Positions 27,989 to 39,391 of a DNA stretch of 42,805 nucleotides are shown here, piece after piece (the first letter of the stretch is position 1; every line of letters begins with the position of its first letter). The stretch comes from Escherichia phage Shy. The position numbers and the translations under genes were made by a program. Location: sequence record OR996328. One strand, 5' to 3'. Under the pieces are notes generated by a model. The model was not told the origin of the DNA. It ran no database searches and saw nothing but the letters and a program-made list of their open reading frames with translations.

Positions 27989-28960
27989 TTAGTCTTTCCC
28001 GTTGATAATTGGTTTCCATTGGTCGCAAGCCTGTTTAATTTCGGCTTCGCCGGGAATAATTGCGTTCCATTGTTCGCAAAACCATCGCGCATTATCAACC
28101 GGCCGGGCCTTCACGCACGAACGGCAATTCTTTTCCGGTAATTCGCCTTTGTGGCAAATGCCTTTATAGTTGCAAAACGAACAAGGAACTTGCGCCGGGC
28201 TGGCCGAAATCTTCGGCATTGGGGTTTGACTTGCGATAACCTTTTCGGCCTTCTGAAACTGTTGTTCGCCAAGGCGCATATTTAGCGGTACGATTTCGAT
28301 ATGCAAGTCGTCGTCGTTCTTGTTCACGTTCAAGTAAACAACGAACCGGAAGTTATACGCATAGCCATACGTCGAAGTTTGCGCGAAGTGTTGCGGCTTC
28401 GAAAGCATCATGCCTTGTTCGCCCAACTTGTTAAAACCGGCCCCGGTTCCGTTGGTCTTGAACTCGCACAACATCGCTTCTTCGATACCGTAATGCGGCG
28501 GCAACTTGATAATACCGTCAAGCGAACCGCCAAAGTGCCCCATTGCGCCGGAAATACGGAATTGCTTTTTCCCCTTGTCTTCTTCGCTGGCGTTCTGGTC
28601 GTCGAATTCCCACACTTGGCACCCGATGCCGCGCAAGTATTCGATAAAGGTTGCTTCTTCACGGTGCCCGCGCTGGAACAGGCGCAACATGCGGCCCGTA
28701 AACTTTTCATGTTTCGCCCAACGGAAATGCAACCAAAGTTTTTGCAAGCAATCGTCGCCGATAAGCGATGCGCCCAAATGCGAACGCGGGCCAGTGTCGT
28801 AAGTTGCGACCGCCCATTTTTCGATATCGTCTTTCAGTCGGTTAGCTACCAACTTAGCGACGCCGGGTTGCATTAAGTCAACGCTTACGCTTGCGGTCTT
28901 TTCCGCTGTTTCGTTCGTATTCGCGTTGTTCCCGAAGATTTCGTTTTGCTGTTCGCTCAT
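27989..28960 (-). CDS. PD-(D/E)xK exonuclease, Cas4/RecB-like with Fe-S Cys cluster
   Basis: 323 aa; N-terminal Cys (GDDCLQK), D...E-x-K (GSLDGII...CEFK), QTSTY, C-terminal CSFCNYKGIC; start may be the internal Met at 28873. Confidence 0.6.
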   Translation of the reverse strand: MSEQQNEIFGNNANTNETAEKTASVSVDLMQPGVAKLVANRLKDDIEKWAVATYDTGPRSHLGASLIGDDCLQKLWLHFRWAKHEKFTGRMLRLFQRGHREEATFIEYLRGIGCQVWEFDDQNASEEDKGKKQFRISGAMGHFGGSLDGIIKLPPHYGIEEAMLCEFKTNGTGAGFNKLGEQGMMLSKPQHFAQTSTYGYAYNFRFVVYLNVNKNDDDLHIEIVPLNMRLGEQQFQKAEKVIASQTPMPKISASPAQVPCSFCNYKGICHKGELPEKNCRSCVKARPVDNARWFCEQWNAIIPGEAEIKQACDQWKPIINGKD

Positions 28961-29393
28961 TTTTACGCGCCTTACGTCGTTCGATGATTTTTTCGTTTGC
29001 GGTGAAATGCTGGTTACAGATTTCGACCGCCCGTTGTAATTGGTCTTTCGACAACCAAGAAATATGGCAATCGTCCGACGCGATACCCAATTCGCCCGCC
29101 AACCAGTCGTAAGCGTGCGAACGCGACATTAACTTCGACTTCCAAATCGGGTCGAATGCGTCATGTACCTTTTGCCGTAATTGGCGCGTTGCCCGGTCGG
29201 CCATGCGACCAAGCGGGATAATCGTTCCGGGGTGACAGCCGACGGCCGCTTTGCAGTCGTGGCAATAATAGATTTCGGGCCAATCCCCGAATAGCCGACC
29301 GTAAATTCGGTCGTTTTGCGTTTGTTCGATGTTGACCGAACCGCAGTTATCGCAATGCGCCGGTATGGGCAATGCGTCTTCGACTTGTGACAT
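28878..29393 (-). CDS. zinc-finger domain protein, function unknown
   Basis: 171 aa; HCDNCG...CHDCKAAVGCH Cys/His clusters; basic C-terminus. Confidence 0.45.
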   Translation of the reverse strand: MSQVEDALPIPAHCDNCGSVNIEQTQNDRIYGRLFGDWPEIYYCHDCKAAVGCHPGTIIPLGRMADRATRQLRQKVHDAFDPIWKSKLMSRSHAYDWLAGELGIASDDCHISWLSKDQLQRAVEICNQHFTANEKIIERRKARKNERTAKRNLREQREYERNSGKDRKRKR

Positions 29394-29408
29394 ACGGCAT
29401 TATTCCCC

Positions 29409-29439
29409 TGTAAAGACGATAAGGGGCCGAAGCCCCTTA
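29409..29439 (-). terminator. intra-operon intrinsic terminator after SSB-like gene
   Basis: Read on the minus strand: TAAGGGGC-TTCG-GCCCCTTA followed by TCGTCTTTA. Confidence 0.5.
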
Positions 29440-29453
29440 CCGTTGATTGCGAC

Positions 29454-30263
29454 TTAGCGCGGTTGGCCCCAAGCCGGTTGGCCGCCGCCGTTGCCTTGGT
29501 TCTGGTTCCAGCCGCCGCCGTTGCCTTGCTGCTGGCCTTGGTTGCCCTGCTGGTTGCCTTGCCAGCCGCCGCCCTGCTGGTTGCCCTGCTGGCCGTTGTT
29601 GCCGTTGTTCTGGCCCCAACCCGGATTACCGCCGCCGTTGTTCTGGCCTTGGTTCTGGTTGTTGCCGCCGTTGTTATCCGGCATCGGAACGTTGTTCGCG
29701 ACCTGCGATTGACCGCCCCAACCGGCGTTGTTACCGCCGTTGTTTTGCTGCTGGTTCTGGCCGCCGTTCTGTTGCTGGTTGCCCCACGAACCGCCGTTGT
29801 TACCGGCTTGGCCGCCGTTGTTCTGCGCGGCTTGACCGTTGCCGTTGGCGTGGCCGGGTTCGTTACCGTTGATATCGAACACGCGTTTTACGTCGGTGTA
29901 CTTGTTCGGGTTCGGTTCTTTCTGCAACCCGACTTCGACCATAAACGGGATGTTGTGCAACTGTTGCGAATCTTGCACTTGGAACACGCCGGTAACGTGG
30001 CACAAAGCCGACAACTGTTTGTGCGCGATTTCGACGGTTTGCGGGTTGGTATGGTACAGGTTCAGGCGGTAAGCGCCGACCGCGCCTTTGTTCGGGCCGT
30101 CGATAACCTGCAAGTCGAATTGCAGATAACCGGAATCGTTATCCTTGGTCGGCTTTACTTCCGACTTGATAGCGATAACCGGATGCTTGCCGATAGGCAA
30201 ACCGCCGACGCCTTGGGTCGGGTCTACGTTACGCGCGTCGAACGCTTGCATCAATTGAGCCAT
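29454..30263 (-). CDS. putative ssDNA-binding protein with long Gly/Asn/Gln-rich disordered C-terminal tail
   Basis: Start at MAQLMQAF (AAAGGTAG RBS); C-terminal ~140 aa of GNNGG/QQ/W repeats resembles an SSB linker but lacks an acidic tip; lies next to an AAA ATPase. Confidence 0.45.
   Translation of the reverse strand: MAQLMQAFDARNVDPTQGVGGLPIGKHPVIAIKSEVKPTKDNDSGYLQFDLQVIDGPNKGAVGAYRLNLYHTNPQTVEIAHKQLSALCHVTGVFQVQDSQQLHNIPFMVEVGLQKEPNPNKYTDVKRVFDINGNEPGHANGNGQAAQNNGGQAGNNGGSWGNQQQNGGQNQQQNNGGNNAGWGGQSQVANNVPMPDNNGGNNQNQGQNNGGGNPGWGQNNGNNGQQGNQQGGGWQGNQQGNQGQQQGNGGGWNQNQGNGGGQPAWGQPR
29460..29870. repeat. low-complexity coding repeats (CCGCCGTTG / CTGGTT units) encoding the G/N/Q-rich tail
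   Basis: Visible short tandem-like nucleotide repeats; they create spurious long ORFs on the plus strand. Confidence 0.7.
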
Positions 30264-37987: not shown

Positions 37988-38006
37988 CGAAACAGGAACC
38001 GCAATC

Positions 38007-38309
38007 ATGCCAGCATACGACGTAACCACTTCTTTCGAAATGACCGACGGCCGCATTCTTGAATGCACTTACGTTCTGTCGGTCACTCCCGCCCGTCTTT
38101 GGGGTGCGCCGGAAAACTGCTACCCGGAAGAATCCGAAGCATCGGAAGGCGTGTTTACCATTGACGGCGAAGAAGTCGATTACGACAACTTGCCGAAAGG
38201 GCTGGCGGCCATCGCGGATAAACTGGAACAGGCCGGGCCGGGCGAATTCGGATACAACGAATCGTTACGCGAACCGGATTACGAACCGGACTTTTACGAT
38301 TATGATTAA
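38007..38309 (+). CDS. strongly acidic small protein (DNA-mimic candidate)
   Basis: 100 aa from ATG 38007 (AGGAA RBS); about 24 Asp/Glu versus 5 Lys/Arg by eye; C-terminal EPDYEPDFYDYD. Confidence 0.45.
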   Translation: MPAYDVTTSFEMTDGRILECTYVLSVTPARLWGAPENCYPEESEASEGVFTIDGEEVDYDNLPKGLAAIADKLEQAGPGEFGYNESLREPDYEPDFYDYD

Positions 38310-38529
38310 CTGTTTGCGATGCGAACTCATAAGGGCCAAGGCGAAAGCTACGGCCCTTTTGGCGTTGAAATGGACGCCGCAAGAAATCGCCGCGAAGCTG
38401 TCGGCCGACTATGGCGAAAGCTATTACGTCGGAATTGAAGCGAACGGCGAATGTTGGTGCAAGGGCATATTTCGGGCGTCCAAGCTGTCGCCTTATACGC
38501 CGCATCTTATTAAGGAGTTGACGAAATGA
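38302..38529 (+). CDS. hypothetical small protein
   Basis: 75 aa; start overlaps upstream stop (ATGATTAA). Confidence 0.4.
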   Translation: MINCLRCELIRAKAKATALLALKWTPQEIAAKLSADYGESYYVGIEANGECWCKGIFRASKLSPYTPHLIKELTK

Positions 38530-38933
38530 ACAAGCAAGAATCGGCCGCACTGTTCGCCGCTATCAAGGAAAACCGCCGCAAGCTGGACGCGTGCCCGCGC
38601 CATCTGTTCGACGTTGGCCCGCCGCCGTATCAGTTAGGCCAAAAGGTAACTTGCGCAATCTGCGACGGTTACATGCCGGTTACGGACGCCGCACAATACG
38701 CACGCGGCTACATGGCCGCAGGTGGCAACCCGGACGACGTAATCAAGAACTTTTACGGGCCGGATTACTCACACGAAGCCGAAGCCGTAACGTGCCCGAA
38801 ATGCAAGGGCGTATGCGGCGTCGAAATCAACCCCGGCGATTGGTTCGATTGCGACTTCTGCGACGCGACCGGCAAGATTGACCGTCACGAAGCGTTGTTG
38901 TATCTGGACAACGAAAAGGAGTCGAAACGATGA
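38526..38933 (+). CDS. Cys-rich protein with DnaJ-like zinc-finger repeats
   Basis: 135 aa; CAICDG, CPKCKGVCG and CDFCDATGK resemble CxxCxGxG-type repeats. Confidence 0.45.
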   Translation: MNKQESAALFAAIKENRRKLDACPRHLFDVGPPPYQLGQKVTCAICDGYMPVTDAAQYARGYMAAGGNPDDVIKNFYGPDYSHEAEAVTCPKCKGVCGVEINPGDWFDCDFCDATGKIDRHEALLYLDNEKESKR

Positions 38934-39391
38934 TTGAACGTCGGTACGAAGACCTTACCGAATGGGAACGGTTCTACCTGTCGTTGGCCCGCACTGTTCG
39001 CACCAAATCGAAAGACCCTTCGACGAAGGTTGGTGCGTTCATTGCACGGCCGGATAACAGCCCGGTATCGTTCGGTTACAACGGCTTTCCGCGTGGCGTG
39101 GCCGATACTGAATCCCGGCTTAACGACCGGGCGCAGAAGTACCCGCGCACCGTACACGCCGAATTGAACGCTATACTAAACAGCCGCGAATCGCTTGTCG
39201 GTTGTACGCTGTTCGTAACGCCGTTGACGCCGTGCCCGGTTTGCGCCGGGGCCATCATTCAAAGCGGCGTTAAACGCGTTGTCGCTGAATATGTGGGCAA
39301 CCGGCTTGCATACGACGAACACTTAGACATTGCCGTTTCGATGTTCAAAGAAGCGGGCGTTAAACTTATCGTAACAAGGGGCGAAGAATGA
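38930..39391 (+). CDS. dCMP (deoxycytidylate) deaminase
   Basis: 153 aa; zinc-binding signatures HAELNAI and PCPVCAGAI of the cytidine/dCMP deaminase family. Confidence 0.8.
   Translation: MIERRYEDLTEWERFYLSLARTVRTKSKDPSTKVGAFIARPDNSPVSFGYNGFPRGVADTESRLNDRAQKYPRTVHAELNAILNSRESLVGCTLFVTPLTPCPVCAGAIIQSGVKRVVAEYVGNRLAYDEHLDIAVSMFKEAGVKLIVTRGEE

Follow-up and report, generated by a model that had tools for sequence, protein, structure and literature searches.

Escherichia phage Shy (OR996328) carries, between positions 27989 and 39391, a MazG homologue, a dCMP deaminase, and Cas4-like and VRR-NUC nucleases. The question raised by this locus is whether these genes form a dedicated set that remodels nucleotide pools, removes alarmones or serves a modified genome, or whether they belong to a common replication apparatus. 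The window, meaning the whole stretch of DNA analysed, is the complete 42.8-kb genome. Over 11.4 kb, positions 27989-39391 share 98.1% nucleotide identity with Escherichia phage Halfdan (MH362766 / NC_072811) and 97.6% with Halfdan_Juelich_variant (PP954860), substitutions accounting for ~1.3-1.6%. Both are placed in Lokivirus by their records; their gene order is identical to that of Shy, and at the protein level MazG and the dCMP deaminase are 100% identical between MH362766 and Shy. The Halfdan GenBank entries already name a nucleotide pyrophosphohydrolase/MazG-like pyrophosphatase, a dCMP deaminase, a Cas4-domain exonuclease, and a VRR-NUC domain protein. The four-gene observation is thus already known; we confirm the gene calls, whereas the interpretation offered by the first-pass annotation is partly supported.

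Family assignments of the four genes

All four ORFs lie where the first-pass annotation placed them, on the strands it gave, and profile matches and intact catalytic motifs bear out its naming of each. Sequence comparison establishes membership of the MazG, dCMP-deaminase, Cas4/lambda-Exo-like, and VRR-NUC families. The MazG-like all-alpha NTP pyrophosphohydrolase (31598-32221, minus strand; 207 aa) matches Pfam PF03819 at 27.2 bits (cutoff 22) and phrog_229 'MazG-like pyrophosphatase' at E=4e-42, with further profile matches to DCTPP1 (6sqw) and E. coli MazG (3crc; family profile, E=9e-5). Its metal-binding motif (E94-x2-E97 ... E124-E125-x2-D128) is invariant across 44 homologues, and its structure model is all-helical (pLDDT 86). 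The zinc-dependent dCMP deaminase (38930-39391, plus strand; 153 aa) matches PF00383 (E=1e-19) and phrog_174 (E=1e-44), with no equivalog threshold reached in NCBIfam. Its closest relatives of known structure are dCMP deaminases (human DCTD 2w4l, E=1e-22; 7fh4; T4 Cd 1vq2; cyanophage S-TIM5 4p9c; down to E=2e-10), with which it shares the fold family, the HAE/PCxxC zinc ligands (H76-A-E78 and P101-C102-x2-C105), and the GYNG motif.

The VRR-NUC nuclease (37008-37607, plus strand; 199 aa) matches PF08774 marginally (24.6 bits, cutoff 23.8), PDB 4qbl 'VRR-NUC' at E=0.005, and phrog_824 at E=1e-38. Its core (residues ~85-195) contains P117-D118 ... E151-x-K153, and the PNGG...PD...ExK motifs of this group, which comprises bacterial and phage VRR-NUC nucleases and the FAN1 nuclease domain, align between the Shy protein and 4qbl. 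It differs from them in its weak scores and an additional N-terminal region of ~80 residues.

The Cas4-like/lambda-Exo-like PD-(D/E)xK exonuclease (27989-28960, minus strand) matches phrog_1990 'Cas4-domain exonuclease' at E=9e-99 and has no sequence match in Pfam, NCBIfam or PDB. The C-x2-C-x5-C motif noticed at first reading spans residues 260-269, and the fourth cysteine of the cluster is C71. The resulting Cys-x(n)-Cys-x2-Cys-x5-Cys arrangement matches that of the Cas4 and AddB iron-sulfur nucleases, and the catalytic residues D148, E166-x-K168, and Q194-x3-Y198 correspond to the PD-(D/E)xK core with QxxxY of Cas4 (SSO0001, 4ic1) and lambda exonuclease/RecE-type enzymes. In 18 homologues C71, C260, C263, C269, D148, E166, K168, Q194, and Y198 are invariant, as are C279, C282, C295, and C312 of a second, C-terminal four-Cys module. 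This extra module, the lack of a Pfam Cas4 match, and the lack of cas genes nearby set the protein apart from Cas4. The top Foldseek matches are lambda exonuclease, Cas4 SSO0001, LHK-Exo, MGME1, and RecE, fold similarities that are only suggestive given a model of mean pLDDT 58. The start may possibly lie at 28873, where a Halfdan record places an ATG (294 aa) 4 nt past the upstream stop; a 323-aa product implies an 83-nt overlap with that upstream gene, conservation starts near residue 31, and the gene is 885 nt long in one Halfdan record and 972 nt in the other.

MazG, the deaminase and the nucleotide pool

MazG does head the leftward operon, as had been proposed: a 151-bp gap (32222-32372) parts it from a rightward HTH gene and forms a divergent promoter region with back-to-back promoter-like sites (32300-32272, minus; 32313-32341, plus). 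Directly downstream lies a DUF7173 gene (31053-31520, minus strand; PF23791, E=5e-53), which in relatives is kept directly downstream of either MazG or a dUTPase. In Pavpe01, the closest non-Halfdan relative, a canonical trimeric dUTPase (NF001862, 148.8 bits, cutoff 103; PF00692, E=6e-24) occupies exactly the MazG slot upstream of the DUF7173 gene, and likewise opens the leftward operon. Its beta-rich trimeric fold is unrelated to the all-alpha fold of Shy MazG; the positional substitution implies an equivalent role in the sanitation of dNTP pools.

The suggestion that MazG removes alarmones, lowering (p)ppGpp and so keeping a starved host permissive for replication, fares poorly against this context. 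The papers describing the DLP1/DLP2 and Loki genomes (PMC4559383, PMC5313236) put it forward on the model of what had been reported for E. coli MazG, and the homology of the core domain to the E. coli enzyme is in its favour. However, the only phage MazG to have been assayed, that of cyanophage S-PM2, is an NTP pyrophosphohydrolase that prefers dGTP and dCTP and neither binds nor hydrolyses (p)ppGpp (Rihtman et al. 2019, PMC6850273). The core of Shy MazG is homologous to this enzyme: residues ~82-174 align with cyanophage MazGs at ~30-35% identity (~33% to the assayed one). The N-terminal ~80 residues of Halfdan-type MazG do not align with them, and are conserved among homologues, with Y9, T16, D46, K49, K50, F53, and Y54 invariant. 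MazG is, moreover, the first cistron of a replication operon, and its place in Pavpe01 is taken by a dUTPase. We consider an alarmone hydrolase very improbable; the comparison points to cleaning of the dNTP pool, though sequence cannot tell the substrate preference.

Of the wider proposal that the phage remodels nucleotide pools, the alarmone part is thus not supported, while tuning toward dUMP and dTTP explains the deaminase most economically. The gene would lie in an early block, judging by its position, and hosts of most relatives are probably richer in G+C than the phage. Pavpe01, unlike Shy, has no dCMP deaminase.

The replication and recombination module

The Cas4-like gene shares its operon with genes for a Sak4-like annealase, a single-strand DNA-binding protein (SSB), helicase, clamp, and polymerase, a context that fits the earlier placing of the nucleases in recombination or DNA processing. 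The Sak4-like (AAA_24) single-strand annealing ATPase (30320-31000, minus strand; PF13479, E=4e-17; 'Sak4-like ssDNA annealing protein' in PP954860) is the likely partner of the exonuclease. The neighbouring of exonuclease and annealase genes recalls lambda Exo and Beta, although the partner here is a Sak4-type ATPase rather than Red-beta or RecT. The DUF669 SSB, with a Gly/Asn/Gln-rich tail (29454-30299, minus strand; PF05037, E=6e-13, and annotation), is separated from the exonuclease by a DUF3268 zinc-finger protein (28878-29393, minus strand; PF11672, E=1e-34). Beyond the exonuclease follow a superfamily-2 DEAD/ResIII helicase (26345-27988, minus strand; PF04851, E=6e-22; PF00271, E=2e-12) and, at the operon end, a sliding-clamp-like processivity factor (24882-25901, minus strand; phrog_947, E=9e-60) and a divergent family-B-like DNA polymerase (22747-24882, minus strand; phrog_1252, E=9e-200), which matches PolB models of Pfam and NCBIfam only below threshold. 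On the rightward side, a primase/helicase combining an NrS-1-type primase-polymerase helix-bundle domain with DUF3987 (32585-34891, plus strand; PF13148, E=1e-13; PF22763, E=4e-7) precedes an iteron-like cluster (34913-35152). This cluster, a candidate replication origin, holds six of the genome's eight TATAAGG heptamers around an A+T-rich stretch; 2.2 matches are expected, and eight were reached by none of 100 shuffles.

Septimatrevirus- and Lokivirus-like phages keep this gene order, as phage 73, Loki, phiAxp-1, and Pavpe01 show. Septimatrevirus members (Pseudomonas phage 73, Kakheti25, and Ab26; Stenotrophomonas DLP1/DLP2; Burkholderia KL1) share with Shy the leftward series MazG, DUF7173, Sak4, SSB, Cas4-like exonuclease, helicase, clamp, and polymerase, and the rightward block from HTH and primase to dCMP deaminase. 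Their proteins are just 40-67% identical to those of Shy, and their tail and adsorption genes differ. Among IMG/VR loci with the module, the Cas4-like gene occurs in 34 of 37, VRR-NUC in 22 of 28, and the deaminase in 9 of 28; 13 MazG loci without the module have none of these three genes. The Cas4-like, VRR-NUC, and MazG genes are part of a replication/recombination module common to these siphophages, and the deaminase is an accessory gene. Because it is found in only 9 of the 28 related loci, the four genes are uncoupled and do not amount to a dedicated system.

Genome chemistry and restriction-site avoidance

An unexpected result, lying outside the four-gene finding, concerns composition. 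The trinucleotide GAG/CTC is almost missing from both strands (65 observed against ~1430 expected), and GATC, CCWGG, and 38 of the 64 palindromic hexamers are entirely absent. Septimatrevirus genomes share with Shy both the G+C content (~53.5%) and the depletion of GAG/CTC, GATC, and CCWGG. The depletion is clade-wide and under ongoing selection.

Whether the genome carries modified bases had been left open. dCMP deaminases and dNTP pyrophosphatases are parts of base-replacement pathways in T4, SPO1, and PBS2-type phages, and the MazG and deaminase of Shy could in principle serve such a chemistry. In one version, dU- or 5-hmdU-type bases replace thymidine, the conversion of dCMP to dUMP feeding the replacement base and MazG removing the competing canonical dNTP. 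U or hmU cannot be distinguished from T in sequence reads, and ~20 small early proteins, to which domain searches assign no function, might include a novel modification enzyme that escapes such searches. Yet domain and profile searches of ~55 proteins, together with annotation, found no base-modification enzyme in the complete genome (thymidylate-synthase-like hydroxymethylase, hmdU kinase, glycosyl- or aminotransferase, deazapurine DpdA/Que, PurZ, or methyltransferase). Most relatives lack the deaminase, and the canonical dUTPase in the MazG slot of Pavpe01 would work against dU-DNA. Restriction digests, which concern relatives carrying the same genes rather than Shy, show DLP1/DLP2 DNA cut by EcoRI and, matching in silico prediction, Loki DNA cut by BmtI, BsrGI, BclI, and SspI (PMC4559383, PMC5313236). 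Extreme avoidance of restriction sites, finally, implies DNA exposed to sequence-specific nucleases, and would be pointless were the DNA hypermodified. Together these observations argue for canonical DNA, and a non-canonical chemistry served by MazG and the deaminase appears extremely doubtful.

The same avoidance raises the possibility that at least one of the four acts chiefly in counter-defence: MazG might degrade a nucleotide immune signal, deaminase or MazG might offset host dNTP-depletion defences, or a nuclease might destroy host DNA at a short motif that the phage avoids. Signs of an arms race with sequence-specific nucleases are indeed unusually strong in this genome, E. coli K-12 and Pseudomonas taiwanensis have yielded near-identical isolates, and relatives cross taxonomic orders. 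The deaminase domain matches an anti-phage dCTP deaminase model at 55.6 bits, but this falls far under the model's cutoff of 400 bits. Loki has both VRR-NUC and the Cas4-like gene, and phiAxp-1 has VRR-NUC, yet GAG/CTC depletion is weak in both (0.35-0.37), and the genes that only the strongly depleted genomes share comprise DUF3268 and small ORFs that do not encode nucleases. We regard a mainly counter-defensive role as unlikely.

With a probability of about 0.75, we read the four genes as ordinary, previously annotated parts of the replication/recombination machinery in a Halfdan-type siphophage whose packaged DNA is canonical. In such a phage, the Cas4-like enzyme would resect DNA ends 5'->3', the DUF669 SSB would cover the 3' tails, and the Sak4-like ATPase would anneal them, feeding recombination-dependent replication carried out by the phage's own helicase, clamp, and polymerase. 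VRR-NUC would cut branched or Holliday intermediates, allowing concatemers to be packaged. The deaminase would convert dCMP to dUMP for the host thymidylate synthase, shifting supply toward dTTP for a genome of 53.7% G+C, and MazG, like the dUTPase of Pavpe01, would convert unwanted dNTPs (dUTP- or dCTP-type, or damaged) to dNMP and PPi.

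Genome identity and the shared replication module

The region spanning 27989-39391 aligns over its full length with Escherichia phage Halfdan (MH362766/NC_072811; 42,858 bp) at 98.1% identity and with Halfdan_Juelich_variant (PP954860, here the Juelich variant) at 97.6%. Since the gene order of the window runs from the small terminase through the structural, replication and early genes to the lysis genes, we regard it as a complete, circularly permuted genome. All four ORFs singled out by the first-pass annotation are present: MazG (31598-32221, minus strand), dCMP deaminase (38930-39391, plus strand), Cas4-like nuclease (27989-28960, minus strand) and VRR-NUC nuclease (37008-37607, plus strand). 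Their identities are borne out by profile matches and motifs, and they already carry equivalent names in MH362766 and PP954860 (MazG-like pyrophosphatase or nucleotide pyrophosphohydrolase, dCMP deaminase, Cas4-domain exonuclease and VRR-NUC domain protein). The four-gene finding is therefore already known and confirms the public annotation of a described phage. The paper describing Halfdan (PMC7552041) makes it the first member of a new siphovirus lineage, distantly related to Lokivirus and Septimatrevirus, and mentions neither MazG nor a deaminase. Scanning the window for Rfam families and tRNAs gave no match.

For Halfdan, the record gives E. coli K-12 as isolation host and wastewater from Denmark as source; for the Juelich variant, it gives Pseudomonas taiwanensis and soil from Germany. 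Phages this close (97.6-98.1% identical) are thus on record from both hosts. This may reflect an unusually wide host range, or one of the host records may need checking; the related phages DLP1 and DLP2 infect across taxonomic orders (PMC4559383).

The leftward operon comprises, in order, MazG, DUF7173, a Sak4-like AAA_24 ATPase, a DUF669 SSB, a DUF3268 zinc-finger protein, the Cas4-like nuclease, an SF2 helicase, two small genes, a clamp-like factor and a divergent B-family-like polymerase. On the rightward side, an HTH protein and a primase/helicase come first; about 20 small genes come next, among them the deaminase, VRR-NUC and a DksA-like zinc finger, with the lysis genes after them. As had been proposed, MazG is the first gene of the leftward operon; a 151-bp gap with back-to-back promoter-like sites separates it from the rightward HTH gene. 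Pseudomonas phages 73 (Septimatrevirus) and Pavpe01, Acinetobacter phage Loki and Achromobacter phage phiAxp-1 have the same architecture. We further searched 80 IMG/VR loci around MazG homologues by tblastn, limiting counts to loci that extend far enough. Among those bearing the module, the Cas4-like nuclease was found in 34 of 37, VRR-NUC in 22 of 28 and the deaminase in 9 of 28, and none of the three occurred in the 13 MazG loci without the module. These counts mark the nucleases as core or near-core components and the deaminase as an accessory gene, which refines a common annotation habit. Thus, the observation in the first-pass annotation is confirmed and its interpretation is supported only in part: the operon position of MazG stood, and the treatment of the four genes as a special set did not, as they are parts of a wider module in which MazG and the deaminase need not occur together.

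Two further features of the replication region were observed. At 22747-25901 (minus strand), the matches of the replicative DNA polymerase (711 aa) to family B stay below threshold in both Pfam and NCBIfam, and the clamp-like protein encoded in the same interval has none in either; both match PHROG families strongly, marking them as a divergent pair. Six of the eight TATAAGG heptamers in the genome, in both orientations, lie in the intergenic stretch 34913-35152 directly after the primase/helicase gene, surrounding an A+T-rich segment (35050-35110). This iteron-like cluster suggests a candidate replication origin.

Predicted activities of the nucleotide-pool enzymes and nucleases

The MazG protein (31598-32221, minus strand) matches PF03819 at 27.2 bits (cutoff 22) and phrog_229 at E=4e-42, and its metal-binding motif E94-x2-E97 ... 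E124-E125-x2-D128 is invariant across 44 homologues. Searched against PDB by phmmer, the sequence itself found no match; E. coli MazG (3crc, E=9e-5), DCTPP1 (dCTP pyrophosphatase 1, E=3e-3) and the MazG-related protein 2yxh were reached with the family profile only. The structural model is all-helical (pLDDT 86). Compared with PDB by Foldseek, it had no significant match, the highest-placed pyrophosphatase (4qgp) ranking 22nd at E=4.8, and the output was no more than noise; a single extended helical chain cannot be superposed on the swapped dimers of MazG. Residues ~82-174 are the sole part that aligns with cyanophage MazGs, at ~30-35% identity. The N-terminal ~80 residues, to which the cyanophage proteins show no alignment, form a conserved extension (residues 1-81; 31979-32221, minus strand) with invariant Y9, T16, D46, K49, K50, F53 and Y54.

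Alarmone removal had been suggested as one role of this MazG, an idea repeated for DLP1/DLP2 and Loki (PMC4559383, PMC5313236). It finds no support in the sole phage MazG to have been assayed, that of cyanophage S-PM2, whose preferred substrates are dGTP and dCTP and which leaves (p)ppGpp untouched (PMC6850273). As the cyanophage enzymes match the core only, at the identity level noted, the substrate of the present enzyme is one that we infer. The most telling comparison is with Pavpe01, the closest relative outside the Halfdan group, whose replication-gene proteins are 74-91% identical to those of the window, except the Sak4-like and DUF7173 proteins at 61-63%. Pavpe01 has neither MazG nor dCMP deaminase and encodes at 40779-41291 a canonical trimeric dUTPase (NF001862, 148.8 bits, cutoff 103; PF00692, E=6e-24). 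This gene occupies the MazG slot exactly, as gene 1 of the leftward operon directly upstream of DUF7173. Such a non-orthologous replacement speaks for a dNTP-sanitising pyrophosphatase in this slot, and by this analogy the present siphophage MazG subfamily most likely sanitises dNTPs. The Pavpe01 dUTPase is thereby a concrete hint against the 'stringent-response' and 'toxin-antitoxin' labels that MazG carries in several records.

The deaminase (38930-39391, plus strand) matches PF00383 (E=1e-19) and the dCMP deaminase family phrog_174 (E=1e-44), retains the zinc motifs H76-A-E78 and P101-C102-x2-C105, and also contains GYNG. The five best PDB matches, at E=1e-22 to 2e-8 and led by 2w4l (E=1e-22), are without exception dCMP deaminases, with cytosine and tRNA deaminases appearing at E values of at least 1e-4. 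Its scores fall below the NCBIfam equivalog thresholds for both ComEB (42.6 vs 219 bits) and the anti-phage dCTP deaminase (55.6 vs 400), and we therefore did not file it under either.

The Cas4-like protein (27989-28960, minus strand) belongs to phrog_1990 ('Cas4-domain exonuclease'; E=9e-99), and this PHROG family was its only match, with none in Pfam, NCBIfam or PDB sequences even when the family profile was used. Its catalytic residues (D148, E166-x-K168 and Q194-x3-Y198) are invariant, as are C71 and C260-x2-C263-x5-C269, the ligands of a predicted iron-sulfur cluster. The top fold matches were lambda exonuclease (Foldseek probability 0.99) and Cas4 SSO0001 (0.98), at E~1e-3 and TM 0.26-0.47, along with LHK-Exo, MGME1 and RecE; these are only suggestive, as a shallow alignment produced a poor model (mean pLDDT 58). 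We retain the name 'Cas4-like' rather than Cas4 because a Pfam scan and the annotation recovered no cas genes in the complete genome. Two starts are possible: 28960, which gives an 83-nt overlap with the upstream gene, and 28873, 4 nt past the upstream stop as in MH362766; conservation begins near residue 31. At the C-terminus (residues 279-312; 28025-28126, minus strand), four further cysteines, C279-x2-C282 ... C295 ... C312, are invariant in 18 homologues and look like a zinc-ribbon-like module. To our knowledge, no such module has been described for Cas4 or lambda Exo. From its gene neighbourhood and the suggestive fold matches, the Cas4-like protein would act as the 5'->3' end-resection partner of the annealase, the two being paired like lambda Exo and Beta.

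VRR-NUC (37008-37607, plus strand) is a marginal match to PF08774 (24.6 bits, cutoff 23.8). Its alignment to PDB 4qbl (E=0.005) spans the PNGG, PD and ExK motifs and places the catalytic residues P117-D118 and E151-M-K153 in register with their equivalents. Resolving branched replication and recombination intermediates is an established role of bacterial and phage VRR-NUC proteins, and by analogy the protein of the window would most simply be such a resolvase.

Restriction-site avoidance and probably unmodified DNA

The window contains no GATC (~130-165 expected), no CCWGG (~100 expected) and no EcoKI site, and 38 of the 64 palindromic hexamers are missing, compared with 17% of non-palindromic hexamers. 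Restriction-site avoidance on this unusual scale is consistent with unmodified DNA and a broad host range; in the literature searched, we found no report of it for Septimatrevirus or Halfdan. CACAG/CTGTG is also absent from the window.

The first-pass annotation had left room for modified bases, and the indirect evidence now speaks against them. Across ~55 proteins searched with Pfam and/or PHROGs, no TS-like hydroxymethylase, hmdU DNA kinase, glycosyltransferase, deazapurine gene (DpdA/QueCDE/FolE), PurZ/DatZ or DNA methyltransferase was detected, and the full annotation of PP954860 likewise lists no base-modification enzyme. Relatives also yield digestible DNA: EcoRI cuts that of DLP1/DLP2, which have the same MazG and deaminase (PMC4559383), and BmtI, BsrGI, BclI and SspI digests of Loki DNA give the patterns predicted in silico (PMC5313236). 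In contrast, YuA-like phages are described in the literature as digestion-resistant. That Pavpe01 carries a dUTPase in place of MazG counts against dU-DNA in this lineage, and the avoidance of restriction sites makes sense only if the DNA is recognisable by nucleases. We leave a small residual weight on a base-modification pathway, which could still hide among the ~20 small ORFs that have no assigned function and which we hold to be very improbable.

Clade-wide depletion of GAG/CTC

Outside the four-gene finding, the unexpected result is a single trinucleotide outlier. Counted on both strands of 1-42805, GAG/CTC occurs 65 times against ~1430 expected from composition (observed/expected 0.05; 0.06-0.12 with dinucleotide-based expectations); no other trinucleotide falls below 0.35, and enrichment is seen for AAG/CTT and GAA/TTC. 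Glutamate is encoded by 659 GAA and 13 GAG codons. An explanation at the level of translation, namely avoidance of internal Shine-Dalgarno sequences, was rejected, as CTC on the sense strand (37) is depleted like GAG (28). This independence of transcription direction indicates that the depletion acts on double-stranded DNA rather than on mRNA. GAGT accounts for 44 of the 65 survivors, and 15 are spaced from a start codon as a Shine-Dalgarno sequence would be; phage 73 has 28 sites, of which 24 read GAGT and 20 GGAG.

Strong depletion (0.01-0.10) recurs in phage 73 (0.02), a KL1-like locus, Pavpe01 and more than 15 module-bearing uncultivated contigs, at 47-55% G+C. Loki and phiAxp-1 show a milder form (0.35-0.37), and it is absent (0.7-1.2) from unrelated phages in which MazG is the sole common gene. 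The signal is separable from GATC avoidance, some loci having GAG at 0.03 and GATC at 0.5. Between the window and the Juelich variant, 479 substitutions placed at random would create 49 +/- 7 new GAG/CTC sites, and we found 53 shared sites and just three unique to each genome, which indicates present-day selection. A hypermutable motif is disfavoured by the same comparison, with 53 of 56 aligned window sites kept in the Juelich variant and new ones ~10-fold rarer than random. Avoidance of a CRISPR PAM was dropped, given the enrichment of AAG/CTT and GAA/TTC.

The clade-wide near-loss of GAG/CTC, GATC, CCWGG and most palindromic hexamers points to a strong selective agent that acts on double-stranded DNA with very short specificity. 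For GAG/CTC, the cause that seems most likely is a frequent-cutting or nicking enzyme of ~3-nt specificity, of host or phage origin. We screened five phages for genes present in the window, Pavpe01 and phage 73 and missing from Loki and phiAxp-1. Only DUF3268, one virion protein, the spanins and two small unassigned ORFs (38302-38529 and 39578-39958) passed this phylogeny-confounded screen; no obvious nuclease tracked the strong depletion, and it yielded no candidate gene.

One scenario would link this signal to the nucleotide-pool enzymes and the nucleases by having the phage degrade host DNA and spare its own, and we give it a probability of about one in ten. A GAG/CTC nuclease or nickase, either an unassigned early protein or a host enzyme that the clade constantly meets, would shred the G+C-rich host DNA. 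The phage would be spared because it has purged GAG/CTC, keeping the word mainly in GGAGT ribosome-binding sites, and MazG (or the dUTPase) together with the deaminase would rebalance the salvaged C-rich pool for a genome of ~54% G+C. Viral nickases of three-nucleotide specificity occur in chlorella viruses (Nt.CviQII, R^AG; Nt.CviPII, ^CCD), where protection of the virus comes from methylation and not from word avoidance. In the literature searched, we found no report of GAG/CTC depletion. Spanning a whole clade of broad-host-range siphophages, it would matter much more than the four-gene finding.
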